Below are positions 8,679 through 55,031 of a stretch of 64,000 nucleotides of DNA, piece after piece (positions within the stretch are counted from its first letter, which is position 1; each line of letters starts with the position of its first letter). Position numbers and translations under genes: made by a program. A model generated the notes under the pieces. The model saw only the letters and a program-made list of their open reading frames with translations. It ran no database searches and had not been told where the DNA came from. The stretch lies in the NCBI GenBank assembly GCA_000146465.1, contig CP001951.1. One strand, written 5' to 3'.

Positions 8679-8730
8679 TTCCGAGGGCTGTTCTTGATAG
8701 CGAGACTTATTCGGTTGCAAAACGACAAAA

Positions 8731-8803: not shown

Positions 8804-8883
8804 TGTGCTTCCACATACACCCCACAAACTGTTTCCAACATCCGAACAACAATCTAACAAAAACCCTCTTCCTCCTTGCCCCC

Positions 8884-9201: not shown

Positions 9202-9276
9202 ATTAAATTTATTTTCGGTTTTTATTCTTTTCTTATCCTCCTTAGTCTTGGCAACTTCTTTTTTGAAATTAGAAGC

Positions 9277-10610: not shown

Positions 10611-11210
10611 CTATCCCAAGTTCTCCTCGATAATCGTGGTATATCCATTTGCCTCAAACAGTCCATGCTCTATGACCCCACAGATGCTCTTGCATTCCGA
10701 TATAAAGTCGGCGTTGTATTCCACATCAACTATACAATTTCCTAAGTCGCTGATTAATGGTCCTGCCTTCCCTGTGGTTTCTCTTAAGAAATGCTTCAAC
10801 TTATACTCTTGAAGAATCGAAAGGAACTTCATCAGGGAAATAGAGGAGATTTCAATAGGAACAAGACATCCTTCAAATGTTTCTCTATACTTATGCCTTT
10901 GAACTATTATAATGATATCTTTGGCCATGGAATAAAGTAGCTTTTCGGTAGTAAGTGCTCCTCCCCCTCCTTTAATCAGATTTCCACATTTGTCAAAGTA
11001 GTCTGCACCGTCTATGTACAGATCCAGGGACTCATGACCCAGGGGGCTTGATACTATCAAGCCCTTTTCTCTAAGCTTCAGTGCTGTTTGGATGCTTGAG
11101 GGAACATACACCACTTCCCTATCTAGAACCCCTATATACCTTTCTATAGTAGTTCCTGTTCCAATTCCAATCACTGTCCTGCTCTCTACATTTTTTTTAT
11201 ATCCTTCCAT
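10611..11210 (-). CDS. RKI1: Ribose-5-phosphate isomerase A
   Basis: Motifs: GIGTGTTIERYI, DGADYFD, KGGGGALTTEKLL. The start is at the ATG of MEGYKKNV. The 71-codon hydrophobic extension in the track would overlap the next gene and is rejected. Confidence 0.8.
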   Translation of the reverse strand: MEGYKKNVESRTVIGIGTGTTIERYIGVLDREVVYVPSSIQTALKLREKGLIVSSPLGHESLDLYIDGADYFDKCGNLIKGGGGALTTEKLLYSMAKDIIIIVQRHKYRETFEGCLVPIEISSISLMKFLSILQEYKLKHFLRETTGKAGPLISDLGNCIVDVEYNADFISECKSICGVIEHGLFEANGYTTIIEENLG

Positions 11211-11358
11211 ATGTCCCTGAAGACAAAATAATAAATCTCTTAAAAGGAAAAATCTCCAATAATTCACAACTACGAATGCAAAAAACATCCCTCCTGCCAC
11301 AGTTACTTCTTTCATGATCAAACAGTAGCACCATATGAAAATAATGAAAGACATTGCT

Positions 11359-37645: not shown

Positions 37646-39256
37646 TTAGCATTCAGTCAATTCCACATTGATAAAGTCATTTTTCTCAATGGATTCCTTG
37701 TATTTTTTGTTTATGTAAAGGACAGACCTGACCCACATTATACAAAATATCCCTACAAACACAGTGGATATAGAAACCATGTTTCTAACATCTCGAACAT
37801 CAAACACCACCGTTATAAGAGTGCAGTACACAGACCCTATTGTTTTTCCAATGTTTATCCCTAGCCCATCGTGTATTCCCCTGAAGGAATGGCGATGAGA
37901 AGGGGGGACTCTTATAGAGGCTGCTTCCTTTGCAACGTCAAAAAAACAATACTTGGATATTTTTATGATCGTATTCAAAAACATCCCGGTATAGTTTTCC
38001 AAAACAAAGCTCCCCAGGTACCCCTCCCGGGGTGTGATGACTTCATCTTCAGAAATGTTGTTGAAGAAAACCATGGGAAAAAACAAAACCAATGTGATTA
38101 TAGCGATAGCAGGTGCTGTTATGGCCACTAAAAACCATCCCTTTCTCTCTATAAGATGAGTTGCAGGCCTGAAGAACATTACAATCAAAAAGGCGGAAGT
38201 TATTATCTGTGCCATGGCATTAAGTTTGTTGATATAAGAAGATCCAGACAAAGAAGCCTGAACAGCTCCCAATACTACTCCTCCTCTATAGGTTGCTTCG
38301 AATATGTTTGAGCACACGGAAGTAGCTATTACAGACTCGGTCATTGCCATGAGAAACCTAGACTTCCTCATTATTCTTAACGACTTAGTAAACCCCATTT
38401 TGTGGTCCTTATACTCCTTCTTACTTCCATACTCTCGATCGTCTTTTGGTGTAAATTTGTCGGTGAAATAGCTTGTTATTGCTGATACAGCTGTCAAAAT
38501 GGATGTTACAACAAATACCTGAGAGAACAGACTTTCCTTTTTGCTATATGGTAGGGTGTCCCTATAACTGTTTAGGCTTCTTGTAAGCAAACCAGAGGAA
38601 AGCAAGACCATTCCTGATATCAAGGATACCACCGGTAAGAACTTCTTTAGCTGGGCTTCTGTGCTCTGATGAATTGCTCTTGAGAAGAACATAAAGGAAA
38701 TTATAAGAGACCCCCACAACTCTGCCACAAGATATAACACAGTAGAAGCCCATTCGTTAAAGACAAGAAATATGGGAAAGAAAAAGTCCAAATGTCTTAT
38801 CTTCATTTTTCCATCGCTGAATATATCTCTTGACCAAAAGAAGTCTGGCTGAAGCTTCTTAGAACAGGGCCAGATTACCAACCCAAATAGCAAGAAGAAC
38901 ACAGATAAAATTATAAGGACAACTTCGAGAATTCTTGGCTGGCTAAGAAATTTCAGCCCTTTCTGTACAATAACGATGAAAAAGAAAGTCACCGGTAAGA
39001 CTAACACAGACTTTATGAACAATATCGAGCTAGGGATTTGAGTGTTCATCATCACCATATCGCCTAGAATGTACAAAAATGCGTCAATGTACGAAAGTAA
39101 AGCATAAAGTAAGCTAAAAAGAAGAGTTGCCTTGGTGTCGTTGCTGATATCATTAATTCTCTGGAGGGTTCTGCTATATATGGAAGCACAATGTCTTTCT
39201 TTTCCAAGTATCTTGTCTTCGCAGCCGGCTAAATCAGTGCATTCATTTTCTAGCAT
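37646..39256 (-). CDS. ADP/ATP nucleotide transporter (NTT, TLC family), paralog 1 of 3
   Basis: 536 aa with about 12 predicted TM segments. Block FFWSRDIFSDGKMKIRHLDFFFPIFLVFNEWASTVLYLVAELWGSLIISFMFF is shared with the other two copies in the window. Size and topology are typical of chlamydial/rickettsial-type TLC transporters known from microsporidia. Confidence 0.8.
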   Translation of the reverse strand: MLENECTDLAGCEDKILGKERHCASIYSRTLQRINDISNDTKATLLFSLLYALLSYIDAFLYILGDMVMMNTQIPSSILFIKSVLVLPVTFFFIVIVQKGLKFLSQPRILEVVLIILSVFFLLFGLVIWPCSKKLQPDFFWSRDIFSDGKMKIRHLDFFFPIFLVFNEWASTVLYLVAELWGSLIISFMFFSRAIHQSTEAQLKKFLPVVSLISGMVLLSSGLLTRSLNSYRDTLPYSKKESLFSQVFVVTSILTAVSAITSYFTDKFTPKDDREYGSKKEYKDHKMGFTKSLRIMRKSRFLMAMTESVIATSVCSNIFEATYRGGVVLGAVQASLSGSSYINKLNAMAQIITSAFLIVMFFRPATHLIERKGWFLVAITAPAIAIITLVLFFPMVFFNNISEDEVITPREGYLGSFVLENYTGMFLNTIIKISKYCFFDVAKEAASIRVPPSHRHSFRGIHDGLGINIGKTIGSVYCTLITVVFDVRDVRNMVSISTVFVGIFCIMWVRSVLYINKKYKESIEKNDFINVELTEC

Positions 39257-39415
39257 TTAGGGTATTATCTTAAGAAAATTAAATTGGTTTGTTATTTAAG
39301 ACTTTGATTCTTTTGTATGACATGTTTATATTAAACCGGAGAGCCGAGTCGAGAACTAGACCTCATAGCGAAGATAATCAAAAGAGAATTGATTTCTCCC
39401 TCGCAATCCCAAGTA

Positions 39416-39838
39416 ATGGATGATAATTGGAAAGCCTTCAACTTGAAAATCGAGCATGGATTAGGACACAAAAGGACTCTTGAATGGGAAAGGATTGTAA
39501 AGCATCGCATAAGACAAAATTCGCTAAATTTAGCAAGTGAAAATGAAATTGAGCGGTATTCCGATAAGTACTTTAAAAGTCTTCTTTCAGAGGACATGAT
39601 AAAGGAGATAGTAAGTGTGGAACTGATGCCACCCGAGATCTCAAGGACATTTGGAGAAAAGAAAGAGAAGAATATGGAGGACATTGAAGGAATTGAAAGC
39701 TCAGCTTCGGAGGAGTATGATGGGTCGGATGAAACTGAGAATAGTAATGATGTTGAAAACGACTATGAAGAGAACTTCTATGAAAATGAAGAGGATGATG
39801 AGCTTACTGAAGAAAAAGATGAAGAAGGATTCTTCTGA
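39416..39838 (+). CDS. Hypothetical protein with strongly acidic C-terminal tail
   Basis: The track start is a TTG, so the first ATG (MDDNWKAF) is used. The C-terminal 50 aa are Asp/Glu-rich (EEDDELTEEKDEEGFF). No domain recognised. Confidence 0.4.
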   Translation: MDDNWKAFNLKIEHGLGHKRTLEWERIVKHRIRQNSLNLASENEIERYSDKYFKSLLSEDMIKEIVSVELMPPEISRTFGEKKEKNMEDIEGIESSASEEYDGSDETENSNDVENDYEENFYENEEDDELTEEKDEEGFF

Positions 39839-39923
39839 TATAAGCCGAGGTGGACGGGATAGATCTTCGTTTGTCTAAATATAAAATTTTTGTAAACTCA
39901 ATAGCCTTGGTTTGGATTTTAGA

Positions 39924-41126
39924 ATGGAATTCGATGAACTAAATATTGATGATTCTTTGGTACAAGCATGCCAAAGAAATGGAATTACTAGGCCTACGGA
40001 AATTCAGAAGCAGGTAATTCCTATGGTACTTGGAGGAAACGACATTATAGCTGTTTCGCAGACGGGGTCGGGAAAGACCCTTGCATTTGTTCTTCCAATA
40101 GTGTCACGCCTTCTGCTGAAGAACAGATCTTTTTTCTGTCTAGTGGTTGCTCCAACAAGGGAATTGTCTTCGCAAATTGCCGAATGCTTTAATATGTTTG
40201 GATCCACAGGCCTGAGGGTTTGCTTACTTGTTGGAGGGACTAATTTTAATCTTCAGGCCAATCAGCTTTCCAAGCATCCTCATATTGTTGTTGGGACACC
40301 GGGAAGAATAGCTGAACATATTCTAAAGACCAAGTCATTCAAAGCAGAAAGAATAAGGAAACTTGTGCTTGATGAGGCAGATCGATTCTTCGAACAAGAC
40401 TTTGTAGAGGATTTGGAAACCATTATCCGAAGCTTGAGAGAGAAGAGACAGACACTCCTCTTTACGGCGACAATGTCTAATGAAATATCCAAGTTGTCCA
40501 GTTCGATACTTATAAAGCCCAAGACCATTCGTGTAGTAGAAGGATATGAAACGGTTTCTGCTTTGAAAGAATACTATTTCTTCACAGCAATGAAATGGAA
40601 GAGTTCTGCCTTGGTTGAATTCCTTGAGATGAATCCAGGTGCATCTACTATTGTATTTGTATCAATGTGCATAACTGCTCGAGTAATGTCTCTGGCGCTG
40701 AGTAAGCTTGGATTCCATTCGGAAGCACTCTATGGGGAATTGAGCCAGGAAAAAAGAGAAGAAACCATGAGGATGTTCAAGGAGAATAAGTTCAGCGTCC
40801 TTGTTTGCACCGATGTTGGGAGCAGAGGATTGGATATAAGCCATGTAGACTTGGTGATAAACTTCGATGTTCCAAAGAGTGGAAAGGACTATGTTCACCG
40901 TGTTGGAAGAACTGCTAGAGCAGGAAGGGCAGGAACAGCTATTACGCTCGTGACTCAATACGATGTTGAACAACTTCAGAGAGTGGAATTTGTGCTGAAG
41001 AAGAGTCTAGAAGAATTTAAACCGGTAAAGAAGAACTTCGAATCAATACGCGAGAAGGTTGAAGAAACTATCCAAGAAGCCCAGGAGATTCTCAAGGGGG
41101 AAAGAAAAAGAAATAGAAGACATTGA
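39924..41126 (+). CDS. RRP3: DEAD-box ATP-dependent RNA helicase (Rrp3/DDX47-like)
   Basis: Q-motif region RPTEIQKQVIPMVLGGNDIIAVSQTGSGKTLAFVLPI, PTRELSSQI, TPGRI, LVLDEADRFF (DEAD box), SAT-like TAT, ARGLDI, HRVGRTARAGRAG. The track start is a TTG, so the first ATG (MEFDELN) is used. Confidence 0.8.
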   Translation: MEFDELNIDDSLVQACQRNGITRPTEIQKQVIPMVLGGNDIIAVSQTGSGKTLAFVLPIVSRLLLKNRSFFCLVVAPTRELSSQIAECFNMFGSTGLRVCLLVGGTNFNLQANQLSKHPHIVVGTPGRIAEHILKTKSFKAERIRKLVLDEADRFFEQDFVEDLETIIRSLREKRQTLLFTATMSNEISKLSSSILIKPKTIRVVEGYETVSALKEYYFFTAMKWKSSALVEFLEMNPGASTIVFVSMCITARVMSLALSKLGFHSEALYGELSQEKREETMRMFKENKFSVLVCTDVGSRGLDISHVDLVINFDVPKSGKDYVHRVGRTARAGRAGTAITLVTQYDVEQLQRVEFVLKKSLEEFKPVKKNFESIREKVEETIQEAQEILKGERKRNRRH

Positions 41127-41347
41127 TGCATAGGACTATCAATAAAGATAAGTATTTACATTCTCATAGAATGAAGAATAAATTAGATATCCGCTTAGGT
41201 TTTATTTTGAGTTTTCTAATCTATGTTCCATCTTTTTAAGTGAATAGAAGGTTAAAACAGAGATGAAACCACATCGGACACAAGTATCAACATGTTAGAG
41301 CTTGAAGGATTATTGAAAGTATTTACTTTCCTTGGAGTTCCACATCA

Positions 41348-43225
41348 ATGCCGCCCGAAGGTACTGATCCAGAAAGAGAAGTACCAGAAGAAAAGATAAA
41401 AGAGGAGGAAAATAAGGAGGGGCCTGGAAAAGAGGAAGAAGGAGAGAAAAAGAAGGAAGAAAAAAAAGATGATGGAGTAATAGACGATATCATTGCCAAC
41501 AACGCTGTTGATGCACCTCCTGTTGAGCCGGAAAATGAAATAATATTCACAAAGGCCAAGGTGTTTGAAGAGGAAGAGCTTTCTTTCTGGAATATAGACA
41601 GCTATTTGCACAGTAAGTTCTCCTATATCCCCGAGGTCATTAGAAGACTAATAGAAATTACCATTGTGGTATTTCTATTCATGGTTTTTCCTCTAGTTCT
41701 TTCGTTTTTGGAAGATGGAAAGGAAGTATTATACCTCCCGAAACAGGTATTTCAGAACACCGGACAAGGCCCAACATACTTATTTTTTCGGATCAACCTT
41801 TTCATATCAATGTGTTATGTGATTTACGTGGTGGTCTCTCTGTTTGCAAGTAACATACTCTATATCATGGTTGGGGTTCTAAACTTCTTTAACTACGATC
41901 TTGACGAGTACACCATAGAGATCATTCAAGTGATAAACTCGACGTCGTGGTGCTGGAAGCAATCCCTAATAGCTGCTCTGATTTTTTTGGCTGCATCAAT
42001 CACCTCCCAGCCGTATGATTTTGGAAAAAATGATGGAAGTTATAAGTACAAAGTCGTCACCATGATACTTATGTACTCTGTCTTTATATTTGTTGTGTTT
42101 CTTGAGAAATTCTTTATGTGCTTTATGATTTCAGAGATAAGAAGAAAGGAATACAGAAACAGAATATGGGATATCAATTACAAGACATTTGTGTTCAAGA
42201 AGCTTGCAGCAATTTCCGAGGTTTCTTCGTCCGAAAGGAAGGAGCTTGCAGAAACCATCCAGCCAGACTTCGATCCAGGGTTTTATTTAAAATATAACGA
42301 CTTAAAACTGAACTCGGTGGAAGCTGCAGAAATGGTTGCCGAGTCGATATTTGGATTCCTGGAAGTTCAAACGATTATATACGAAGATTTAGAGAAGTTC
42401 TTTCCCGACAATCACAAAGAAGTGTATACATACCTGGCAGACAACTCGGAAGTTAAAGATAAAGACAATCCTCCAATAACGTTTGAGGACCTTAAAGCCA
42501 AGGCAATAGCCTTGTATAAGGAGAGGACAGACATATCAAGAACTCTTCAGTCTAGAGACATTATCATAAACAAGTTAGATATAATACTGGTTGGAATTGC
42601 AATGTACTTCGGGGTTATATTAGTGATGATTCTCTTAGGAATCAACTACGAAGGGATGCTTGCGGCCATTGTTCCATCAATAGTTACCTTCAGTTGGATA
42701 TTCTCCGATACTGTCAAGGAGATATATAATTGCTTTATATTTCTTCTAGTCAACCATCCCTACGATTGTGGAGATAGGGTTGTAATCGATGGGGAAGAAC
42801 TTTATGTGTCCTCTGTTGATCTCCTATCATCCACATTCACTGGAGTGAATGGGAGACAAGTACTCATACCGACATCTACTCTGTTCAGAGCAAAGATCCA
42901 TAACATAAGAAGATCAGGAAAGCAATTTTCTGAGGTCAGCATCCTAGTAAGTAGGAAAACTTCATTTGATGCAGCACTCAGGCTTAAGGATGGAATTGCA
43001 AAAACATTTTCTGAGTCTACGAAGTCATTTTCGGGGGAGATTTATATCCGAGACTTCAGGACTGAAGGAGAAAATGTCAAGATAATTTTTGCAATACAAC
43101 ATCAGTCTAACTTCCAGGATGTTAAGAAGAAATACAGCAGAAGGGCTGAAATTGTAAATATACTAGAAAAGGAAATGAGAAGCCAGGGAATAGAGTACTT
43201 AAACTCATACAGATTCAGTGATTAG
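41348..43225 (+). CDS. MscS-like mechanosensitive ion channel with low-complexity charged N-terminal extension
   Basis: Multiple TM helices followed by the MscS beta-domain signature NHPYDCGDRVVIDGEELYVSSVDLLSSTFTGVNGRQVLIPTSTLFRAKIHNIRRS (compare hPf.vGD.i.i.g..G.V..i.l..T.l...dg..v.iPN). The N-terminal 45 aa are Lys/Glu-rich. Confidence 0.75.
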   Translation: MPPEGTDPEREVPEEKIKEEENKEGPGKEEEGEKKKEEKKDDGVIDDIIANNAVDAPPVEPENEIIFTKAKVFEEEELSFWNIDSYLHSKFSYIPEVIRRLIEITIVVFLFMVFPLVLSFLEDGKEVLYLPKQVFQNTGQGPTYLFFRINLFISMCYVIYVVVSLFASNILYIMVGVLNFFNYDLDEYTIEIIQVINSTSWCWKQSLIAALIFLAASITSQPYDFGKNDGSYKYKVVTMILMYSVFIFVVFLEKFFMCFMISEIRRKEYRNRIWDINYKTFVFKKLAAISEVSSSERKELAETIQPDFDPGFYLKYNDLKLNSVEAAEMVAESIFGFLEVQTIIYEDLEKFFPDNHKEVYTYLADNSEVKDKDNPPITFEDLKAKAIALYKERTDISRTLQSRDIIINKLDIILVGIAMYFGVILVMILLGINYEGMLAAIVPSIVTFSWIFSDTVKEIYNCFIFLLVNHPYDCGDRVVIDGEELYVSSVDLLSSTFTGVNGRQVLIPTSTLFRAKIHNIRRSGKQFSEVSILVSRKTSFDAALRLKDGIAKTFSESTKSFSGEIYIRDFRTEGENVKIIFAIQHQSNFQDVKKKYSRRAEIVNILEKEMRSQGIEYLNSYRFSD

Positions 43226-43310
43226 TTCTAAAAATAAAATACTTTTATTAGAACAGATGAAGCGTTTTGAGTGAAGATGGATTTGGGAGGGATCGAGGAC
43301 ACAGGTGGAA

Positions 43311-43381
43311 GGCGCCATGGTCCAGTGGTACGATACGTGCTTCGGGTGCACGCGACCCGAGTTCGATTCTCGGTGGCGCCC
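43311..43381 (+). tRNA. tRNA-Pro (CGG)
   Basis: GGCGCCATGGTCCAGTGGTACGATACGTGCTTCGGGTGCACGCGACCCGAGTTCGATTCTCGGTGGCGCCC: acceptor GGCGCCA/TGGCGCC, anticodon stem CGTGC/GCACG with loop UUCGGGU, T-arm CCGAG-TTCGATT-CTCGG. A TTTTT run follows. The D-arm pairing is weak, so isotype and coordinates are +/-2 and moderately confident. Confidence 0.65.
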
Positions 43382-43470
43382 GAGGCTTTTTCATTTTCTT
43401 AGAATCGTATGCTTTTCGCCCGCAACAATACCTAAATGAATACTAGTTCGGTGGGAAGTCACCCCTATAA

Positions 43471-43938
43471 ATGGAGTTTGGAGACAAAGTAATTCCCTAC
43501 GATCATGTCATCATAAAGACAATGCATTCGTTTATATTCACAAACCTCAGGCCTTTTCTTCCCCTTCACATACTTGTATCTCCCATATCTAAAAAGCAGA
43601 GGATATATGAGTTAACGAATGAGGAAACATCCGACCTATTCAACACAGTAAGAGTTGCGATGTTAGGTCTCAAAGACCTATGCGATGGATTTACATTAGG
43701 TGTCCAAGATGGTTCCTGTGCTGGGCAGACGGTGTTTCATGTTCATGTCCATATAGTTCCCAGGGTAGTTAAAGATCTTGAAAGAAACGATGATATATAC
43801 GAAAAAGGCGCTTTGGATTCTGCCGACAGGCCGGCAAGGGAATACGATGAGATGAAGAAGGAAGCTGCAAAGCTTAGAAAAATCATAGGGAGAGCCTTTG
43901 ACTCTGAAGGATTATATTATCAGAACAGCTTTGAATGA
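43471..43938 (+). CDS. Histidine-triad (HIT) nucleotide hydrolase, Fhit-like
   Basis: Histidine triad VFHVHVHIVPR and upstream nucleotide-binding residues. Size about 155 aa. Upstream context is acccctataaATG. Confidence 0.75.
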   Translation: MEFGDKVIPYDHVIIKTMHSFIFTNLRPFLPLHILVSPISKKQRIYELTNEETSDLFNTVRVAMLGLKDLCDGFTLGVQDGSCAGQTVFHVHVHIVPRVVKDLERNDDIYEKGALDSADRPAREYDEMKKEAAKLRKIIGRAFDSEGLYYQNSFE

Positions 43939-43987
43939 TTCTCCCATTGCTTTCTACAATAAAGTAGATTTTTATTAGGGCCCACGC

Positions 43988-44767
43988 ATGTTGGAGCTTC
44001 CCCCAGATACCAGAAAAGGCTTTTTATATCTGGTCGATAGAGAAGTCTTCTCCAAGTTCAAGGGATATGTAGATCTTGACTTCCTGTATGAAGAAGACCA
44101 TGGTGAAGTAAAAGTAGCCTCTGTCAGTGTATTAGAAGATAGTTTTATGTGGTCTGAGGGAAATGAGGAGAAGTCTGCTCTCCCAAGTGAATTTAGATGT
44201 TCCCATGGAAACGAGATAACTCATAAATCATTGAATCTTCTTCCCCAGGAGGGATGGGAAGAGTTGATAGACTGCTGGTCATGCCACAACTGCGAGTTCA
44301 GAACCATGCTAGATCTCAAACTTCGGCCTAGAGAAGGGGGTCTGCTTCTTTCCGATTTCTTTTTCCTTGTAAATGATCGAGATCTCCCAGAATGCTGTAG
44401 AAAAAATGATTCTTCTGTAAGAAAGCTGTTCTACAACGAAATTGAGCAAGAGGAATTCACCCACAGAGCTCTAATCTACTCATATATGAACCTTCATTTT
44501 CGAAACAAGAATGTTCTTTTACTTGAAGTAAACGAAAAGAAATACGAGATTAGGTACTTTTATAAGACAATGTTGGTATCTGCAAATGGGAAGAGTTTGG
44601 AGAAAAAGGAGGCAATGAAGGTAGGAATCAAAGAAACGGACAAGCTTCTGGAAGAAAATAAGAACATAAACAATTTCTATTCTAAGCTTATATGGGATGC
44701 AGTAACATTAGGCGCAGTTGGAATAACTGCCCTAGGATATGGAATTTCATTTGTAACAGAAAAGTAA
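43988..44767 (+). CDS. Hypothetical Cys/His-containing protein with C-terminal transmembrane anchor
   Basis: Clean ATG (gggcccacgcATG). CWSCHNCEF and FRCSHGNE Cys/His clusters. The C-terminal hydrophobic segment LIWDAVTLGAVGITALGYGISFV suggests a tail-anchored protein. No family recognised. Confidence 0.45.
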   Translation: MLELPPDTRKGFLYLVDREVFSKFKGYVDLDFLYEEDHGEVKVASVSVLEDSFMWSEGNEEKSALPSEFRCSHGNEITHKSLNLLPQEGWEELIDCWSCHNCEFRTMLDLKLRPREGGLLLSDFFFLVNDRDLPECCRKNDSSVRKLFYNEIEQEEFTHRALIYSYMNLHFRNKNVLLLEVNEKKYEIRYFYKTMLVSANGKSLEKKEAMKVGIKETDKLLEENKNINNFYSKLIWDAVTLGAVGITALGYGISFVTEK

Positions 44768-44835
44768 AATTGCTGTTAATTTATTGATTTTTGGAATCTT
44801 ACTTGGGAATAGCCCAAGACGATACTTAACGGTGC

Positions 44836-47800
44836 CTACAGCTGAAGAAGCTGATACCCGCTCTTGTTATGTTTTCTTTCGATTATACTAAGTAGTTTTC
44901 TAGCTGCACTTGAAATCTCTTTTCGGGTGCTATCCACGACAAGTGCAAAGTACGGAGAGCTTTTGACAAGGCATTTCTTGAAGTGATAGACCTTTTGGTA
45001 TAGAACTTGAAGTAATTTCAGAATAATAACTGTCTTGTCTCCTTTCATACTGTTGAGTATTAGATCGTTGGCATCCTCGATTTCTTTTGGATTGTGTCTA
45101 AGGATGCTACCAATACACCTTGCATACAGAACATCCGGATCATCACAGTAAAACAAAAAGAGAATTTCAAACATCTTTCTGTGAGGAAGACCATACTCCG
45201 AATCCCAGTATAGATAATCGGTTATAAATGATATCGCATCTTTATCCTTCTCTTCGACCAGCTTAACCATGACATCTGCATATGGCTTGAAGATTTTAAA
45301 GCAAAGAGAAAAAGATGCCTGGGATACTTGGAAGAAAACGCATCTATTTCTTTCGTAGATGATCCTTAGAAGAGATTGGATCTCTTCGTCTGCCTCAGGG
45401 TTTACCTTTAGATAAACCTCAAAGAACTTCGTAAGAAGCTTGCCTTTCAACTTCGAGACATTTGAGCCAAGGAACTTCACAACCTTTATGAGTACAGACG
45501 GTGAAACCGAAAGTCCCGAGGTATCAAGTACCTTGTGCATGAAGTCAAGATGATGTTCGTCTGGAGCGTCTACGTATGCCTTTATTGCTCCTGTCAGGAG
45601 GTATCGTGAATCAATTTCGAGCATGCAATCTTGCAGCTCAGGAAATTTCTGGAGAATGTCTTTAACGTAAGGTCCCATGATGTTTTTATGCTTCTCAAAG
45701 AGTATTCTGACAGACTCCTTCTTATGTTCTATCATGCAGGGTGCAATCATAGGTACAAACTGCAAGGAATCGAATGGAAGTTTCCTCAGAAGAATATCAA
45801 AAAGGCTACTTCGGAAACTATAATCCGAATTCTTGGCTACATCCATGAGTTTTTGGTAGTCTATGGAGGCTTCATCTTCCACAATTGTCTCGAAGAGATC
45901 GAGATCACCTTTGAAATCAGAAAAGTTGCCAAGAAAGTAGTCAAAGCAGAATTGCCGGTACTTATCATATTGCAGAACTAGTTCGGAAACAATGACCTTT
46001 ATAACATTCCATTCTCTTATCGTAGTGCATTTGATAAGATGAGGAATGTACTTACTTTGAAATAGTGCTTTGACTATTCTTTCTCCTCCAAACTCGACCA
46101 GAGAAGAAGAATATCGGATAAAATCCTCCTCATCTTTAGGAAGCAAGTTTTGTTTGGATGTTGTTTCAATGAAGTCTACCACATGTTCATTCCTTCTATT
46201 TCCAAGAATCTTACAAAACCCGTACTTTCTACACAGAGATAAAAGAGCATCATGGTGTCTTTCCACAAGACACTCGTCAATCACCTCTTCTTTATATCTG
46301 TATAGTCTATCAACCACATCGTAATTGTCTTTTGAAAATCCTTTTGTGCTCAGAATCTTTTCGCAGTTTTCTTTACTCACAACCTCAAGATGAATCCTCA
46401 GTCCTGAGTAAAAAGCCGGATAAAACCACATCTTATCTATCAACCATCCGAAGACATCGTTTATGAGTTCTTCATCCTTCACCTGCTGTAAATACCCACA
46501 CAGTGCATCCATATGTGCCTTAGATGAGAACTCCATGGCCTTCTTCAGTAGTCTTCTGCTCATCTCTACTTCAAAACCTCTGGCCTTTTCAGAGAGATAG
46601 TTCAGATAGGCCGGGTTGGTGTAAAATTCCTTTTGGATAATTATAGTTGCCAGATCTATGTTCATGAGCTTGGCTGTGTCGATGATGTTTTTCACAAAGA
46701 CATTTTCTTGGCATTCGTCCATCAATGAAAAAAGTACTTTCTCATCAAGGTAGTCCACAAAGACATTTCCATCATATTTCACATACTTCAAGCAGGTTTT
46801 CATAATCTTCATCAGATCATTCTCTACCATCTTCCGGGGCATGTTCATCACAACTATGCTGTAATTTCCTTCGGTTATAAGACTTTCCCATAACCACGGA
46901 GACTGTTCTGAAAGATATGCTTTGTCGGCATCTCCCATGTGCGGAATAAGTGTTGAGACATTCTTAGGAAACCTCTGACTAAGAAGCTTGACAAGACCCT
47001 TCTTGTCTTCCAACTCCCTAAACAGATTGATATAGTCAAAGATTTCCCCATCGAGATTCTTTTCTTCAATTCCACAAAGAGTCTTCAGAGCTCCGATCTC
47101 TATCTCATTGATCGACTTCAAAGATAGTTCTTCTCTATGGAGCCACATCACATAGTCTTTATATCTGCTGCTGTCTCTCAGAATCTGTCTGTCGTTCCCA
47201 CTATCATATATCTTCCTAAAAAGTGCACTTTCTTCATGGGGAATATCCTCTTTATGACTTACCTCTTCAAGCTTTCTTGACATCAGATATTCCTTGGCAA
47301 AATAGGGCTCCAACAACTCAACAAACTCATCAAGAACTCCCTCGACATGGTCTCTTATTTCGAAGAAAATCTTGACTGCTGCATCACTTTCTCCAGACTT
47401 GGTGAGATGGGATATCATCTCATAGAACTGCATGGAAAAGTCTTTGTCTGTATTCTTAATCCCTGAAACTATATATCCAGTTACATCAAGACAAAAGTCT
47501 TGGATATACTTGAAATGCTCAAAATATCCTACAAAGAAATCAAAAAAGTGCTTCTCTCTCAAACAAAGATTCCCAATAAACTGATACGAATAGGTTGGTT
47601 GAATTGAGAAGTAGTTGAAATCAGATCTCTGACTTATGCATAAAACCTGGCCATAGTACTTCTTAAATGGAAGAAGAAAGAAAATCATCTCCTTTGGGTT
47701 GAAAGTGTCACACATATATCTTCGGACAAGATATTCAAACAAATATTCGATATCCTTTACATTCCCATATCTGACCAATTCTTTCAAAAACTCCGAAAAT

Positions 47801-48054
47801 CCCCTGTTAAACTTTCTCTCCTCCTCCTCTGTCTGCCTCTGTCGGTCAAAAAATAGGCTTTTGGTTTTTGTGTATGGTGTTTGGATTGGAATCAGTTCAA
47901 GAATTGTTTCTTCGTCCATGTCCTCTGTATCTCCAAATCTCACTCTTCCCTTCATCTCAGAGTGAGCAGCTCTTCTGCATTTCTTCAGCCTCAGCAACTG
48001 ATCTTTTAGCGACATGAGGGCTTTTGGTATAAAATAATAACATCCTTTGAGCAT
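44836..48054 (-). CDS. Large hypothetical alpha-helical protein (1073 aa)
   Basis: Uninterrupted 3.2-kb ORF. The track start is a TTG, so the ATG two codons later is used. All-helical, repeat-like composition (HEAT/ARM-like) without catalytic motifs. Its start lies 16 bp downstream of the HMGS stop. Confidence 0.6.
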   Translation of the reverse strand: MLKGCYYFIPKALMSLKDQLLRLKKCRRAAHSEMKGRVRFGDTEDMDEETILELIPIQTPYTKTKSLFFDRQRQTEEEERKFNRGFSEFLKELVRYGNVKDIEYLFEYLVRRYMCDTFNPKEMIFFLLPFKKYYGQVLCISQRSDFNYFSIQPTYSYQFIGNLCLREKHFFDFFVGYFEHFKYIQDFCLDVTGYIVSGIKNTDKDFSMQFYEMISHLTKSGESDAAVKIFFEIRDHVEGVLDEFVELLEPYFAKEYLMSRKLEEVSHKEDIPHEESALFRKIYDSGNDRQILRDSSRYKDYVMWLHREELSLKSINEIEIGALKTLCGIEEKNLDGEIFDYINLFRELEDKKGLVKLLSQRFPKNVSTLIPHMGDADKAYLSEQSPWLWESLITEGNYSIVVMNMPRKMVENDLMKIMKTCLKYVKYDGNVFVDYLDEKVLFSLMDECQENVFVKNIIDTAKLMNIDLATIIIQKEFYTNPAYLNYLSEKARGFEVEMSRRLLKKAMEFSSKAHMDALCGYLQQVKDEELINDVFGWLIDKMWFYPAFYSGLRIHLEVVSKENCEKILSTKGFSKDNYDVVDRLYRYKEEVIDECLVERHHDALLSLCRKYGFCKILGNRRNEHVVDFIETTSKQNLLPKDEEDFIRYSSSLVEFGGERIVKALFQSKYIPHLIKCTTIREWNVIKVIVSELVLQYDKYRQFCFDYFLGNFSDFKGDLDLFETIVEDEASIDYQKLMDVAKNSDYSFRSSLFDILLRKLPFDSLQFVPMIAPCMIEHKKESVRILFEKHKNIMGPYVKDILQKFPELQDCMLEIDSRYLLTGAIKAYVDAPDEHHLDFMHKVLDTSGLSVSPSVLIKVVKFLGSNVSKLKGKLLTKFFEVYLKVNPEADEEIQSLLRIIYERNRCVFFQVSQASFSLCFKIFKPYADVMVKLVEEKDKDAISFITDYLYWDSEYGLPHRKMFEILFLFYCDDPDVLYARCIGSILRHNPKEIEDANDLILNSMKGDKTVIILKLLQVLYQKVYHFKKCLVKSSPYFALVVDSTRKEISSAARKLLSIIERKHNKSGYQLLQL

Positions 48055-48070
48055 ATCCAAGATAGGGAAT

Positions 48071-49216
48071 TTATTCCATCAAACATTCATAATGTCTCTC
48101 AAACGAGGAAATTCTCTTCAAATAGTATCCGGGCAATGATACTCCTTCCCGGGGCTCATAGTTGTCTTGTGGCACCGGCTCCTCAACAAGTTTCACAAAC
48201 TCCGGGTACAATATTTTTCTTCTTTCTAATAATCTTTTTTCAAATCCCGTGACAATACATCCCTGGGAGATTCTTTCCAAGCAAAACATCGAGCTGCATG
48301 TTCCAGATCCATAGGAGAACATTAAAATCTTCTCCCCAATCTTTCCATCGTGTCCGTCAAGCAAAGAGATTAACGAAAGATACAAAGAAGCCGAATATGC
48401 GTTTCCGTTCTTTCTGGATGCTTCCAAGGATTTTAGAAACTTCTTTCTATCTATGTGGTTTGCAACACACATCTTTTCAGGGAGTCTTGTGTATGGAGAG
48501 TGGAGTACAATATAATCAAAGGTTTCATCCCCCATCTTCTCCCTAAACTTCCCATAGCACACCTCAAATGCAGTCCTATAGTTCTCTATTGATTCCTTTC
48601 CCTTAACAACTGGAAATGGATGCGTCTTCCTAGGCTTCATAAAGTCAAATTGGTTTGTAAAGTAGTGAATGATGCTTGATGGAACGATTCTGTAGATGCT
48701 ATTTGGCCCCACCAGGATTGCAACTGCCCCTGCCCCTCCTGTAGGCTGGCAACGTTTATCTTTATACATGGCTACATCGGTAGCAACAACTATTGCAAGC
48801 CTTCCATCCCATAAGGATGATTCCATCCATGAAACTGCATTTAATAGTGCATTTGTTGCACTGTAGCAGGCATGTACACTATCACAACCGCATATCGATG
48901 TGTTTCCCGGGAATAGGTCTGTAAGGTACGACTTGATGGACTTGGATCCATCCGGATTGCTTTCGGTTCCGACTTCAAGTCTCCCAACGCTTTGGGGACT
49001 CAGTTTATACTTTTTCATGAGTTTACTCACTGCATTCAGAGCAAGAGAAATGGAATCTTCCCTTCTAGATGGAACCCCCATCTGTTCCAATCCTAGCCCT
49101 ATTTTGATTTTGTCAACTTCGAAGTCAATGTTATTAGCAACCTCCTCCTGGTCGATGTAGAGAGAAGGAAGTTGGTATTCAAGTCCTACAATCCCAAACA
49201 TATTCTTTGCCGGCAT
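48071..49216 (-). CDS. ERG13: Hydroxymethylglutaryl-CoA synthase (mevalonate pathway)
   Basis: IVGLEYQLPSLYIDQEEV..IGLGLEQMG, active-site region ...HACYSATNALLNAVSWMES, and the C-terminal thiolase-fold blocks are colinear with HMGCS. Confidence 0.85.
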   Translation of the reverse strand: MPAKNMFGIVGLEYQLPSLYIDQEEVANNIDFEVDKIKIGLGLEQMGVPSRREDSISLALNAVSKLMKKYKLSPQSVGRLEVGTESNPDGSKSIKSYLTDLFPGNTSICGCDSVHACYSATNALLNAVSWMESSLWDGRLAIVVATDVAMYKDKRCQPTGGAGAVAILVGPNSIYRIVPSSIIHYFTNQFDFMKPRKTHPFPVVKGKESIENYRTAFEVCYGKFREKMGDETFDYIVLHSPYTRLPEKMCVANHIDRKKFLKSLEASRKNGNAYSASLYLSLISLLDGHDGKIGEKILMFSYGSGTCSSMFCLERISQGCIVTGFEKRLLERRKILYPEFVKLVEEPVPQDNYEPREGVSLPGYYLKRISSFERHYECLME

Positions 49217-49433
49217 CTTCGGGGTAGGGCCATTCTGTATTTCAATAAGGTCTTCATTTACGGTTTTACGGTGGAATTAAAATGAGAAAGGCTTTTGAAG
49301 AGGCAAGAGAAATACTTGTTTGCTATAATAATGTTTTTAGTAAAAGTTGTGGAACGTCCTTCGTATTTGTATGCTGCCATTTTCTGTTTATATTCTATGA
49401 ATATAAATACAACTGGAAGCATATCATACACTT

Positions 49434-51065
49434 CTAGAACTCGTCTAACTCAATGTAGGTATTTTTCTCAACCGACGTCTGAAACTTTCCGTTCAGGTAT
49501 TTCACGATGAAACACCAAATCACAATTATGATTCCAACCAGTAATCCCAACACACCCGAGACAATACGGATGTCGGTTATATCCCATATCCCCGTCATGA
49601 CAGTGCACATTACAGATCCCAAGGACTTTCCAAGTTTTCCACAAAGTCCATCGTAAATGGCCTTGTACTTTGCCCTGTATAGAGGATCTATTTGCATTGA
49701 GATCGCCTCCTTCGAAACATCTGCTCCAAGGTACTTCCCTATCTTTAAAGATGCATTTGTTATAAGTCCAAGGGTGTTTTCAAGAAAAAATACAGGTTGC
49801 TTTCCTTTGAAAAAGGACTTAAATAGTCCACTCTTCCCCGAATACACTCCTACGTTGTAGAAGGCAATAAGAAACACAGAAAAGAACGAGAACACAACCA
49901 CAGCTATGGGAATCGAAGCCACATACTTCCAATACCCCATCTTAATCAAAGCAGAATAGGGGGTGTTGATGACAATAAGAAGAGTCATCGCAATAATTAT
50001 CTGCTCCGAACCATTATAGAAGTTTGAGAATGTTTCCTTCGAGTTGTTTGTATATTTTGCTCCTGCTGCCAATCCACTTTTGAATGTTGCTTCTATTAGT
50101 GTAGAAGACACTCCATAAAGAAGCACGTTTAAGGATATAGCTACAAGTAACTTTGATTTGGATAAGCTCTTCCCAGCTTCTTTTAGTTTGAGTTCCTTTT
50201 GTTTCACGGGCGTCTCTTTTATTTCCTTAATAAGAAACACAGGCACAGGGAGGATTTTCTTTTCTATGTACTTCTTCAATACAAGAACCCCAATCACTCC
50301 AAAAGCCAGCAGTAAAATTAGTATTTCAAATCCTAGCTCCTTCGTCTCAAACACAACGCTATCTCTCCACCTGTTGAATATCAATGTAAAAACAGCAGAC
50401 AGAAAGATCGAAATTGCATTTGATATGTTATAGACTGTTATGTATCTCTGGGATTGCCTTCTTGTTGAAATCTCGTTTGTAAAGACGTTGAAGAAGTACG
50501 ACACCACAAGAGCTCCCCACATTTCCGAACACAGAAAGAGAAATGAAGATGTCCATTCGTTGAAAACTAAAAACACAGGATATAAGAAGTGAATTCTTAA
50601 AGACTCCATTTTTCCGTCTCCGAAGATGTCTCTTGACCAGTAAAAGTCTTTTTGTATATATGCTTTAAATGGCCACATGACCAGTCCAAAGAAAAAATAG
50701 CACCCGGAGAAGAGAATCAGAGTGATATCGAACATTTTGGATGGGTTGAAGAAGTTCAGCCCAAAGTGAATGGCCCAGACAAAAATCAGAGAACAAGGAG
50801 GAAGAAAAATCGACTTGATGAAAAACATGGACATGGGATCTTGTCTTCCCATAAGGACCATTTCTCTTAAGTTTCCCATTATCGTATGCACCATTGTTAT
50901 AACTCCGAATAGAAGTGACAAGTAGAGAACCCTGGGCCACTCGTTTCTTGCTATTCTTATGTGTTTGAAGAACCCTGTCTTCTTGTAGACCTCCTCTTCC
51001 AGCTCCTCTTCTGTTCTAAAGAGGCAAGAGTTCTTAGGAGATGTTGATGGCTGAATATAGCTCAT
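49434..51065 (-). CDS. ADP/ATP nucleotide transporter (NTT, TLC family), paralog 2 of 3
   Basis: 543 aa, about 12 TM segments. FYWSRDIFGDGKMESLRIHFLYPVFLVFNEWTSSFLFLCSEMWGALVVSYFF and C-terminal ...[27 protein letters not shown] are shared with paralogs 1 and 3. Confidence 0.8.
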   Translation of the reverse strand: MSYIQPSTSPKNSCLFRTEEELEEEVYKKTGFFKHIRIARNEWPRVLYLSLLFGVITMVHTIMGNLREMVLMGRQDPMSMFFIKSIFLPPCSLIFVWAIHFGLNFFNPSKMFDITLILFSGCYFFFGLVMWPFKAYIQKDFYWSRDIFGDGKMESLRIHFLYPVFLVFNEWTSSFLFLCSEMWGALVVSYFFNVFTNEISTRRQSQRYITVYNISNAISIFLSAVFTLIFNRWRDSVVFETKELGFEILILLLAFGVIGVLVLKKYIEKKILPVPVFLIKEIKETPVKQKELKLKEAGKSLSKSKLLVAISLNVLLYGVSSTLIEATFKSGLAAGAKYTNNSKETFSNFYNGSEQIIIAMTLLIVINTPYSALIKMGYWKYVASIPIAVVVFSFFSVFLIAFYNVGVYSGKSGLFKSFFKGKQPVFFLENTLGLITNASLKIGKYLGADVSKEAISMQIDPLYRAKYKAIYDGLCGKLGKSLGSVMCTVMTGIWDITDIRIVSGVLGLLVGIIIVIWCFIVKYLNGKFQTSVEKNTYIELDEF

Positions 51066-51384
51066 TTAGGGTTGTGCAAGCCGTTAATAAAAATTGATTA
51101 AAAATCGAAAGATTCTCTGGATGGGCTTGAATTTGGACAAGGGCCGCTTATCTTGGGATTGGAGAGCCTCCAATTTAATTTGTTCTTTCAAATAAAGTAA
51201 TTGCTTTATATGGCTACTTAATAATAGTCTTTGGCACTTGCTTCTAGAGTTTCCGATAGTAGTGCAATGGAAAATTTCTTGTAGTCTCAAGAAACAAAGA
51301 TTTTAACGTTACCCAGGTGCTGGGTATAAGACCATCTATCTATGTTCAGGATATTTTAATCCGAGAAATGTCCATCCTGATAAA

Positions 51385-52296
51385 ATGAAGACGGAACAAG
51401 AAAAAGAAGAAGGACATGTATGCTTTAGCCGGGACTTGGGAAAAGTAGATGTGCGCAATGAGAAGGTTTTTGAAGGGAGTTCCCCTCTTTCATCAGGAAA
51501 AGGTAGTCTTGGAAAGAGACAGTTGAGCCTGGACGATATGTTTTCCAAAAGAAAGACAACAGCTTCGGAAATTAGTAGCGGCCGGAAAGTAGACTGGGTT
51601 TGTGAGGGATGCATCAATCCATGCGAGTATTGTAAGTTAGAGGAGAAGATCGACCCAAAATGGAGAGTATATCTGAAGTCCGAGTTTGGAAAAGACTACT
51701 TTAGAGGAATCAAGAGGTTTCTTCATAAAAACAAAAACCACCTGCCTCCTATCGACAAGATATTCACATTTTCGAAGTTTTTTCCACTGGAAAACACAAA
51801 GGTTGTTATAATGGGGCAGGATCCTTACCATAACGACCAACAAGCAATGGGGCTGTCCTTTTCTGTCCCCCTTGGGGTTTCCATTCCCCCCAGTCTCAGG
51901 AACATATATTTAGAGGCCAGCACTGACATTGAAGGATTCGAGATTCCCTCTCATGGAGATTTGACAAAATGGGCAGAGAATGGGGTTCTCCTGCTGAACG
52001 ATGTTCTTACAGTCACCAAAAACCAGGCAAATTCGCATGCAGGAATCGGGTGGCGGGAGTTTACAAGTAGGATACTCCAGATTATAAACGAGAAATGCAC
52101 CAATGTCGTGTTTATGTTATGGGGACGCCATGCACAGGCAAAGGGAAAATTCATTAATAAGAATAAGCATCTAGTGCTATGCTGTGGGCACCCAAGCCCT
52201 CTTAGCTCCAACCACTTCTTTGGCTGCAAGCATTTCTCTAAAGCCAACAAATATCTTAGGGAGCATGGAAAGTCCCCCATCAAGTGGCAGATATAG
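51385..52296 (+). CDS. UNG1: Uracil-DNA glycosylase (family 1 UNG) with an ~80-aa N-terminal extension
   Basis: Catalytic water-activating loop VVIMGQDPYHNDQQAMGLSFSV, Leu-intercalation loop region HPSPLS, GVLLLN. The N-terminal extension carries a PIP-box-like QLSLDDMF. Confidence 0.85.
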   Translation: MKTEQEKEEGHVCFSRDLGKVDVRNEKVFEGSSPLSSGKGSLGKRQLSLDDMFSKRKTTASEISSGRKVDWVCEGCINPCEYCKLEEKIDPKWRVYLKSEFGKDYFRGIKRFLHKNKNHLPPIDKIFTFSKFFPLENTKVVIMGQDPYHNDQQAMGLSFSVPLGVSIPPSLRNIYLEASTDIEGFEIPSHGDLTKWAENGVLLLNDVLTVTKNQANSHAGIGWREFTSRILQIINEKCTNVVFMLWGRHAQAKGKFINKNKHLVLCCGHPSPLSSNHFFGCKHFSKANKYLREHGKSPIKWQI

Positions 52297-52399
52297 AAGC
52301 AAAGACTTCTTAACCCAAATTAAAATAAGGTTCCCTATCCGTTTTCTACAGAAGAACACAAAAACAACACTGGGACTAATGGACTGGACTGATTTAATT

Positions 52400-54058
52400 T
52401 TATTCGAGATCCTTCTTCCCAGAGAAAAGATCAAGATCAATTGGAGACGAAGTCTGAATAGATTGGTTGTACTTTCTATTCAGATATAGAACCGAGTATA
52501 CCCAGACAGGAGATATTATCAGCCAAATACCAAGAGTAATCGGTGCTGCAGCTCTTACGTCATTGTATCCCATCAATGACCAAAACATAGCATAGAGAGA
52601 TCCTATTGATTTCCCAAGCTTACCACAAAGTCCATCATAAACAGCCTTCAGCTTAGGTCTGTATATAGGATCGATTTGAAGCGAAATAGCCTCTTTTGAA
52701 ATGTCGTAGAAGGCATACTTGGCAATCTTCATTCCACTTACACAGTAAATACCCATGTTGCATTCCAAGAAGAAGTTTGGTTGATATCCTTTGACTAGAG
52801 AAGAGAGGATCACTCCTTCTCTTCCACTTGGATAGTTTGGATAGTTGAAGTATGCTGATCCAAATATCACCATAGAAGATACTAGTGTAACTAGTGGTGG
52901 AACAATAGCCATTGTTATCCATCCATGTGTCTGGACAAGGGTGGATATGGGTGTCAGTAATATTATTGCAACCAAGGCTCCAACAACCCTCTGCTCTCCA
53001 GACACAATAGAGGCAGAATATGCTCTCTTTTCCATGTTCTTTGCATCTGCTGCAACACTTATACCGTTCTTCCATGAAGACTCAATGAGATTGGTTCCTG
53101 CATAATAAAAAAGGGCGTTAAGAACCATTGCAACTAGGAACTTCGATTGTGCCATAAGCTTTATACTTTCTGAAAAGCTAGTTGTAGGCTTTCGTCCTTT
53201 CTTTTTAATTCCCTCTGTTCGGATAAACAGTTGTTTCTTAAGAATTCTGTTTTCTGCATATTTCTTCATAAGATATGTAATTGCTATCAGAACTCCAAAT
53301 ATGACAAAGAATGAATTTGTTACTAAGCATGTTGTCTTGTAGTCCCACATCTTGACTCTTCTTGAGTAGAGAGCTGTCGATTCTGACGACAGAAGAAGCA
53401 GGATGTTTGAAACCACATAGAACAATGGCATCATCCTGGTCGATTGGCGGATGGTCAGAGCCTCATTTGCAAACGAGAGGAACATAAACTGCACTATCAA
53501 TGATCCAAACAGTTCTGCACATACATAGACAAAGCTTGTGGTCCATTCATTGAATATCAAAAAGATTGCAAAAAGAAACTCAAATCCTTTGTATAACATT
53601 TTGTCGTCTGCAAAGATATCTCGAGACAAATAGAATCCCGGTTGAATCTTACTGGCAAAAGGAAGAAGAACTGTTCCTATAAGAGTATACAGAAATGCAA
53701 ACGCAATCAAAGTATAATCGAATACTTTCGAAATTGTGCGCGTCACTAGAAGCTTCTGAACAACCCCAGTAGCAATAACCGACATGGGAAGAACAAAACA
53801 TGTCTTAAGAAATGAAATAGCAACAGGCAGTTGGCGTGATAGAACGAACGAATCCTTCATCACCCTTGAAAATGAATAAATATAAGCTGCAGATCCAAAG
53901 ATAAATGCTAAAGTACTCCAAAGCTTCCATTCGCATCTTGCTATTCTAATTCTACTCAGAGGCCATGTTGTTGATGACAGTGCTTGTGCCTCAACCTCGT
54001 CTTCCGTCAAGAGAGGTCTGTGTTCATCTACCGGAGCAGAAAATCCGATTTCACTCAT
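52400..54058 (-). CDS. ADP/ATP nucleotide transporter (NTT, TLC family), paralog 3 of 3
   Basis: 552 aa, about 12 TM segments. [53 protein letters not shown] and ...[27 protein letters not shown] are colinear with the other two copies. Confidence 0.8.
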
Positions 54059-54326
54059 TCCTTTGGGGCTTATTTTTTCTTTTTTTATATAGGAGATGTA
54101 AAAATTTGCTTGATCTCAGACTTTTCAAGACCAGGGGGAACCAAAAAAATCCGTTGAGCCTTGCATATTCTTCTCCTTCCCCATATTCCGTGCCATTCTA
54201 ATTCCTATTTCCATCTCCCAGATGTTTAAATTCAATCCTCTTTACCCTACCATCTCATATGCTATACCGGGCTTATATGTACTTCCCAATCAAATAGGAG
54301 GAACTTGAATATTACAAGAAATGATT

Positions 54327-55031
54327 TTATTTCTCTGCTATGTCCTGGAGGATCTTATCAATATCTTTTCCAGATAGATGGCATAGATCCTGCCCTGCCC
54401 TTAGATAAGCCACTTCAATTTCCGAGTATCCAGAGTCGGTTCCAATCGACTCCAGCAGAGCTCCAATTGCTAGCTCGAAAAGTTCTTTGTCCTCCATATC
54501 TCCATGATGGTTTTTCTCAATGAACTTGGTCATCTTTCCGTGTTTCTCTCCAGCTGCAGTGGCATAGCAGGGATACGAAATCCCAGACATGTCTGTCTGG
54601 TATATCATAGGCTTTTTCCCGTCAAATCCAAATATAGATGCATTGAATGCTGGAGATCTTTCTTCCGAGCTCTGGATCAACTGCTGAATCTTATCAGCAA
54701 AGCACCTGCATAGGATATCCGGTGTCACTTCCATTCCAAACGAAAACGTCTTTTGGTTTGCAACCATCTTAATCCTTTTTATAACATAATCGACGTCTCC
54801 AGAAAGCCCGGTAATCCCCACATAACATTTCCCGGAGACTCTGAAGAAGCTTGAAGACTCAGACTCCTCGAGCTTGTCTCGTGGGATCTTTTTCGAAGCA
54901 CAAACTATCATGCTCTTGGATTTAGCTGTGACAATAGGTAAGGAGTTATTCACAGCCTCAAGACCATATTCGATTTGCAATAACTTCCCATCACTATTAA
55001 AGATGTTTGAGATCTCTTCCTGTGTTGTCAT
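54327..55031 (-). CDS. 20S proteasome alpha-type subunit (alpha-2-like)
   Basis: N-terminal alpha signature FNSDGKLLQIEYGLEAV (compare FSPSGKLVQIEYALAAV), followed by the Ntn-fold core (ASKK, TGLSGD). Confidence 0.75.
   Translation of the reverse strand: MTTQEEISNIFNSDGKLLQIEYGLEAVNNSLPIVTAKSKSMIVCASKKIPRDKLEESESSSFFRVSGKCYVGITGLSGDVDYVIKRIKMVANQKTFSFGMEVTPDILCRCFADKIQQLIQSSEERSPAFNASIFGFDGKKPMIYQTDMSGISYPCYATAAGEKHGKMTKFIEKNHHGDMEDKELFELAIGALLESIGTDSGYSEIEVAYLRAGQDLCHLSGKDIDKILQDIAEK

Follow-up and report, generated by a model that had tools for sequence, protein, structure and literature searches.

A syntenic cluster of three predicted ATP/ADP transporter genes in Encephalitozoon intestinalis

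1. Introduction

NTT nucleotide transporters are central to the energy parasitism of microsporidia and are candidate drug targets, as was established between 2008 and 2018 for direct orthologs of the genes considered here. These genes, three members of the NTT/TLC family in Encephalitozoon intestinalis, lie on a stretch of 64,000 nucleotides of contig CP001951.1 (GenBank assembly GCA_000146465.1), which is referred to below as the window.

The closest known set is that of Encephalitozoon cuniculi, whose four NTTs (EcNTTs) are all ATP transporters, with an apparent Km in the range of 2.6-24 µM (PMC5113988). EcNTT3 resides in the mitosome and the other three EcNTTs at the parasite surface (PMC5113988, PMC4256464). 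Both the mitosomal location of EcNTT3 and its exchange activity are credited to Tsaousis 2008 (via PMC5923384, PMC4256464 and PMC5113988), and its targeting to the mitosome takes place without a recognisable sequence signal (PMC4256464). EcNTT3 was identified as an exchanger by a counter-exchange assay (Dean 2018, PMC5923384). The same study concluded that the ancestral exchanger phenotype has been kept by most microsporidian NTTs, and that the E. cuniculi NTTs, unlike those of Trachipleistophora hominis and Enterocytozoon bieneusi, cannot be used for net import (PMC5923384). In T. hominis (ThNTT1-4) and E. bieneusi (EbNTT1-4) the acquired gene was expanded to four copies, as in Encephalitozoon (PMC4256464, PMC5923384), but these expansions are independent and lineage-specific; some of their products have become proton-driven symporters, and a mitosomal member is absent. 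For the Encephalitozoon set, in contrast, one mitosomal copy and no net-import member are reported.

The bacterial origin of microsporidian NTTs and their lineage-specific duplication have already been published. The duplications were placed before the split of Encephalitozoon and Nosema (PMC4256464), and the mitosome-type NTT3 lineage was tentatively confined to the genus Encephalitozoon. EcNTT3 orthologs in E. intestinalis have been explicitly mentioned (PMC4256464). The comparison presented here makes it very probable that the three genes of the window belong to a four-member E. intestinalis NTT/TLC repertoire, descend from one bacterial ancestor and encode exchangers like their E. cuniculi orthologs.

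2. Family Membership and Orthology of the Three Transporters

An earlier note on this DNA had described three homologous minus-strand genes for TLC/NTT transporters from a microsporidian source, and the table of open reading frames (ORFs) agrees exactly with the coordinates at which it placed them:

37646-39256, minus strand: copy 1, NTT4-type, 536 aa; PF03219 E = 2.8e-42 over the full length; exact match to ADM12364.1
49434-51065, minus strand: copy 2, NTT3-type, 543 aa; PF03219 E = 7.4e-37; exact match to ADM12372.1
52400-54058, minus strand: copy 3, NTT2-type, 552 aa; PF03219 E = 6.3e-48; exact match to ADM12374.1

The three proteins score 128-164 bits against the Pfam profile PF03219 (TLC ATP/ADP transporter; cutoff 21) and cover it from positions 6-24 to 491 of 491. 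These full-length matches place all three in the family and bear out their homology; no evidence contradicting membership was found. PF03219 stands for the TLC or NTT nucleotide transporters, which TCDB lists as its AAA family. An exact-sequence look-up identified the proteins, together with the uracil-DNA glycosylase (UDG) encoded between copies 2 and 3, as entries of E. intestinalis ATCC 50506, in agreement with the proposed microsporidian source. The transporter entries ADM12364, ADM12372 and ADM12374 were deposited under the name "ATP/ADP translocase".

Each copy has one best ortholog in E. cuniculi GB-M1. According to the UniRef names, the best match is NTT4_ENCCU (CAD25761) for copy 1, with 77% identity, NTT3_ENCCU (CAD25771) for copy 2, with 80%, and NTT2_ENCCU (Q8SUF9, ECU10_0540) for copy 3, with 88%. 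The E. cuniculi NTT2, NTT3 and NTT4 proteins (Tsaousis 2008; Dean 2018) are one-to-one orthologs by these values, and their lengths of 553, 543 and 536 aa compare with 552, 543 and 536 aa in the window. Their genes have the same order, orientation and flanks on the syntenic chromosome; the E. cuniculi block differs by two extra DUF1686 genes and in the species itself. Copy 2 is further tied to the NTT3 orthogroup by its position between UDG and HMG-CoA synthase genes and by a neighbour-joining (NJ) bootstrap of 100%. Copy 1 changes fastest of the three; compared with the other Encephalitozoon species, its identity is 77-79%, and that of copy 3 is 88-89%. As judged from sequence comparison, the three genes are thus the orthologs of E. 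cuniculi NTT4, NTT3 and NTT2.

Among themselves, the copies are far more distant. Pairwise BLASTP alignments over ~525-532 columns yielded identities of 32%, 30% and 35%, the highest value belonging to the NTT2/NTT3 pair. At the DNA level, likeness is limited to two segments of ~105 nt with 73-76% identity, both of which encode the most conserved protein motifs. The (F/Y)WSRDIF-type motif that the earlier note quoted for all three is intact in copies 1 and 2, but copy 3 deviates from it by some substitutions. Protein identities of 30-35% and scant DNA similarity argue that the copies are old, real paralogs and not assembly duplicates, and the view of an old duplication series that is no recent repeat is upheld by the fact that each copy has its own orthogroup. 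That a single locus was assembled more than once or was repeated recently is scarcely credible: the two ~105-nt stretches are the sole DNA likeness that could be cited for it, and they offer no support, whereas three other Encephalitozoon genomes contain a separate ortholog of every copy (77-89% identity), and independent assemblies show the three genes in the same layout. Assembly or recent duplication was therefore rejected on the divergence of the copies and their conserved synteny.

3. Fold and Essential Charged Residues

Solved structures are available for two NTTs, Chlamydia pneumoniae NTT1 (9j3n, 9j3o) and the Arabidopsis protein AtNTT1 (9j3j, 9j3l, 9j3m). They share the Pfam family and, as far as the model described below shows, the 12-helix fold of the major facilitator superfamily (MFS) with the window proteins, although sequence identity to copy 3 in structural alignments is just 23-25%. 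The two also differ in setting, since C. pneumoniae NTT1 is bacterial and AtNTT1 belongs to the plastid envelope, while the window proteins are assigned below to the parasite plasma membrane and the mitosome.

A profile built from the three copies matches 9j3n (E = 8e-46) and 9j3j (E = 3e-38), identified by the fold search as C. pneumoniae NTT1 and AtNTT1, respectively. The AlphaFold2 model, which was made for copy 3, has a mean pLDDT of 77, a pTM of 0.75 and 12 long helices; copies 1 and 2 are tied to this fold by alignment. In a Foldseek search with the model, the top five PDB matches were AtNTT1 and CpNTT1 structures (E = 8e-16 to 5e-13), with TM-scores of 0.66-0.73 when normalised to the query and 0.73-0.83 when normalised to the target. 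Generic MFS transporters trail these by at least about seven orders of magnitude in E value. A crude hydropathy analysis found peaks, 10-12 per protein, at corresponding positions of the three copies. The 12 transmembrane helices foreseen in the earlier note are reproduced by the copy 3 model. The predicted structure is a 12-helix MFS-type fold resembling the solved NTTs.

In AtAATP1, four charged residues are essential for transport: K155, E245, E385 and K527 (PMC10654386). In the HMMER alignment, a single offset of 84 places all of them on K, E, E and K of the 9j3j chain. This offset between the AtAATP1 and 9j3j numbering was deduced in the present analysis and is secure because it is consistent at four sites. 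The matching columns, K82, E179, E320 and K471 in copy 1 numbering, are invariant in the three-way alignment. The window copies thus have the four essential charged residues in common with C. pneumoniae NTT1 and AtNTT1.

4. Predicted Transport Function and Location

Family, fold, charged residues, orthology and synteny come from the present comparison; for transport mode and location, the published E. cuniculi experiments serve as the guide. With 77-88% identity to the E. cuniculi orthologs, the three copies most likely carry out adenine nucleotide transport by ATP/ADP counter-exchange. Each would be a 12-helix carrier of the MFS fold that, as its counterpart in E. cuniculi does, most likely takes up ATP from the host or the cytosol in exchange for parasite ADP. 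For copies 3 (NTT2-type) and 1 (NTT4-type), the predicted role is uptake of host ATP at the parasite plasma membrane; copy 2 (NTT3-type) would pass ATP into the mitosome, a location suggested by that of EcNTT3.

An altered function of at least one copy, be it in substrate range or transport mode, or as a decaying gene, appears unlikely. Copy 1 would be the most plausible candidate, as the least conserved of the three across species (77-79% identity against 88-89% for copy 3) and the one on the longest branch in the NJ trees; elsewhere in microsporidia, duplicated NTTs became symporters or gained GTP or NAD+ transport (PMC5923384). Yet the copy 1 ORF is undisrupted, aligns with the TLC model along its full length, retains all four essential charged residues and occupies the syntenic position in every relative examined. 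[quoted passage not shown]

5. Conserved Gene Order and the Intervening UDG Gene

The chromosome of the window is syntenic with E. cuniculi chromosome X, and the three NTT genes lie ~35-54 kb from the subtelomeric ribosomal DNA (rDNA). Read in the reverse of the window direction, the order is proteasome alpha subunit, NTT2, UDG, NTT3, HMG-CoA synthase, an ORF of ~1070 aa, an ORF of 259 aa, HIT, tRNA-Pro, MscS-like, DEAD helicase, an ORF of ~140 aa, NTT4 and VWA. This order is the same in E. intestinalis, E. cuniculi, E. hellem, E. romaleae, Ordospora pajunii, O. colligata and two further contigs, L004 and L012, with two differences only. E. cuniculi has two additional DUF1686 (PF07937) genes, which separate the MscS-like gene from the DEAD-box helicase (L003:19965-21632, L009:2678-5740); the insertion is absent from E. 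intestinalis (41127-41347), E. hellem, O. colligata and L004. The second difference is a gap at HMG-CoA synthase in Ordospora. The synteny comparison proposed in the earlier note thus revealed a conserved block across Encephalitozoon, Ordospora, L004 and L012. No discussion of the physical clustering of NTT genes was found in the two main NTT papers, nor was literature found on the locus tags ECU10_0420, ECU10_0520, ECU10_0540 and ECU08_1300; the clustering is evident from the E. cuniculi locus numbering.

Only the UDG gene separates copies 2 and 3:

51385-52296, plus strand: uracil-DNA glycosylase gene, 303 aa; PF03167 E = 3.3e-18, residues 131-292; exact match to ADM12373.2

ADM12373 was deposited as "uracyl-DNA glycosylase". 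The gene diverges from copy 2 and converges with copy 3 (head-to-head and tail-to-tail, respectively). Every Encephalitozoon and Ordospora locus, as well as L004 and L012, has it at this position and in this orientation. With PF03167 identified in this ORF and no other ORF between the transporters, two observations of the earlier note are confirmed, namely that UDG alone separates the two copies and that it shares a divergent region with one of them (51066-51384, between UDG and copy 2).

A different arrangement is found on contig L013 (JGI metagenome 3300073837). At 6340-10154, an NTT2-type and an NTT3-type gene are direct head-to-tail neighbours with a spacer of 533 bp, in which no UDG remnant was found by tblastn. 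The proteasome alpha and HMG-CoA synthase genes are retained as flanks, and synteny ends after HMG-CoA synthase.

Some details of the neighbouring genes deserve mention. HMG-CoA synthase lies next to NTT3 in all Encephalitozoon species, L004, L012 and L013; in O. pajunii (L007:14592-14745) and O. colligata (L008:731-882), it is missing between NTT3 and the ~1070-aa gene. That gene, in the window a 1072-aa ORF (44836-48054, minus strand), has no Pfam match, and its position and size (1057-1073 aa) are kept in every relative examined. The UDG protein carries an N-terminal extension of ~130 aa ahead of the Pfam domain (51385-51775, plus strand), its ATG lacks the CCC-like motif found before most genes, and the E. 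cuniculi ortholog is annotated at 253 or 286 aa, compared with 303 aa in the window. The true UDG start may differ from the annotated ATG.

6. Phylogeny and Order of the Duplications

Trees were built by neighbour-joining with three distance corrections and did not include NTT1. Each of the three orthogroups, which span Encephalitozoon, Ordospora and other relatives, is monophyletic with 100% bootstrap. NTT3 and NTT4 are closest to each other and NTT2 is further away, with 98-100% bootstrap. A Nosema granulosis protein falls just outside the NTT3 and NTT4 group, and the L013 genes branch basally in the NTT2 and NTT3 groups. Because the trees join NTT3 with NTT4, the closest relative of NTT3 is not NTT2, its neighbour on the chromosome. 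The trees fit the published dating of the duplications to before the split of Encephalitozoon and Nosema. Syntenic NTT3 orthologs are present in Ordospora and several other relatives, down to ~47% identity.

In the proposed history, a single bacterial gene acquired by the microsporidian ancestor would have given rise to all three copies, and the later local duplications would be older than the split of Encephalitozoon and Ordospora. The oldest visible arrangement would be a tandem pair of an NTT2-type and an NTT3-type gene, with NTT4 as the closest relative of NTT3. It is conceivable, and tentatively proposed here, that the mitosome-type NTT3 lineage arose beside a plasma-membrane NTT2-type gene as a head-to-tail tandem, that this lineage predates Encephalitozoon and extends beyond it, that UDG was inserted later and that NTT4 split from NTT3.

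In the overall reading of the three genes as members of one bacterially derived exchanger family with this history, several points are less firm than others. The trees are NJ trees only, and NTT4 sits on a long branch, so that rate artefacts may affect its grouping with NTT3; raw identity is highest for NTT2 and NTT3 (35%) despite that grouping. Word-indexed protein searches did not retrieve the fourth paralog, NTT1, which E. cuniculi has on chromosome VIII. The transport and localisation experiments concern the E. cuniculi orthologs and not the E. intestinalis proteins, and it is from E. cuniculi, too, that the mitosomal location of the NTT3 ortholog is extrapolated.

7. Upstream Regions

The earlier note had ascribed unusually long upstream regions to all three transporter genes:

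39257-39415, minus strand: upstream region of copy 1 (NTT4), 159 bp; head-to-head with a 140-aa ORF (39416-39838, plus strand)
51066-51384, no strand assigned: divergent intergenic region of copy 2 (NTT3) and UDG, 319 bp
54059-54326, minus strand: upstream region of copy 3 (NTT2), 268 bp; adjoins a proteasome alpha-subunit gene (54327-55031, minus strand)

Lengths were taken from an ATG-only gene table with 46 window genes, the median being 84 bp. The claim holds for NTT3 (319 bp) and NTT2 (268 bp), which have the two largest real upstream regions of the window, and only weakly for NTT4 (159 bp), which lies at the 75th percentile. An 804-bp "largest gap" in the intergenic table was discarded as an artefact of greedy ORF picking, the gap being filled by a 270-aa ORF. 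Other species retain similar upstream lengths for the three genes: the spacer between NTT3 and UDG measures 284-318 bp (E. cuniculi, E. hellem, E. romaleae) or 311 bp (O. pajunii), and the region upstream of NTT2 measures 262-268 bp in three other Encephalitozoon species.

The proximal 60-70 bp are strongly conserved in each region, with a CCC-like motif before the ATG and an A/T block resembling AAATTT or TATA further upstream. For NTT4, the proximal sequence 'CCAATTTAATTTTC...ATACCCTAA-ATG' is conserved in four Encephalitozoon species. Conservation likewise extends to 'ATCAATTTTTATCA...CAACCCTAA-ATG' for NTT3, which has a further conserved block, 'GACAAATTAAATTA', ~110 bp upstream, and to 'GCAAATTTTTACA..CCTATATAAAAAAAGAAAA...CCCCAAAGGA-ATG' for NTT2. 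CCC-like and AAATTT-like elements are generic microsporidian start signals (Peyretaillade et al., PMC2803860). A k-mer comparison of the three upstream regions detected no NTT-specific motif above shuffled expectation: five 6-mers, one 7-mer and no 8-mers are common to them (shuffled fractions 0.09 and 0.21), all of them generic A/T-rich or TATA-like strings. The search for a shared motif, which the earlier note had advised, therefore returned only the generic signals of CCC-like and AAATTT/TATA-like type.

The size of the long regions might be explained by a hidden element, for instance a gene for a small protein, a non-coding RNA or a regulatory module specific to the NTT genes. This idea draws on the 319 and 268 bp as the largest real upstream lengths in the window, on the conservation of both lengths across species, on distal blocks such as 'GACAAATTAAATTA' and 'AGCCCGGTATGGCATAT' that are conserved among four Encephalitozoon species, and on a 56-aa gene called in the region upstream of NTT2 in L004. 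It is nevertheless improbable, as the k-mers common to the three regions do not exceed shuffled expectation, no conserved ATG ORF of plausible size is present, and alignments beyond the proximal 60-70 bp decay quickly outside the genus. Rfam gave no match between 51000 and 54400 at E ≤ 1, and at the gathering threshold only ribosomal RNA (rRNA) and four tRNAs in the whole window. No convincing small ORFs were detected in the NTT3 and NTT2 spacers; those seen are short, mostly have non-ATG starts and overlap the flanks. Nothing marks the extra upstream length as a special element.

8. Other Features of the Window

The window starts with the subtelomeric rDNA unit of the chromosome, as identified by Rfam:

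27-2407, minus strand: large subunit rRNA
2517-3811, minus strand: microsporidian small subunit rRNA

The segment that follows the rDNA and precedes the first ordinary gene (3812-6720) is GC-rich (~0.50-0.52) with a strong GC skew, and several long ORFs overlap on both strands (e.g., 4642-6720, plus; 5508-6698, minus). This segment is probably subtelomeric repeat or gene-family sequence. A 270-aa ORF at 10611-11423 (minus strand) resembles ribose-5-phosphate isomerase by its GIGTGTT motif. When read from the first ATG, it overlaps the start of a neighbouring 368-aa gene; its real start is probably an internal ATG.

9. Significance

The three E. intestinalis genes were already annotated, and the family, its four-member repertoire and the function of the orthologs have been published. 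The present analysis adds an explicit ortholog for each copy, a three-gene layout that is conserved across Encephalitozoon, Ordospora and other relatives, and NTT3-type genes outside Encephalitozoon. It also provides a hint, from the UDG-less pair on one distant contig (L013), that NTT2 and NTT3 began as a direct tandem. Current understanding is unchanged by these additions. If the tentative tandem origin of the mitosome-type lineage is true, the local gene arrangement would record the order of events by which the mitosome lost its own carrier.

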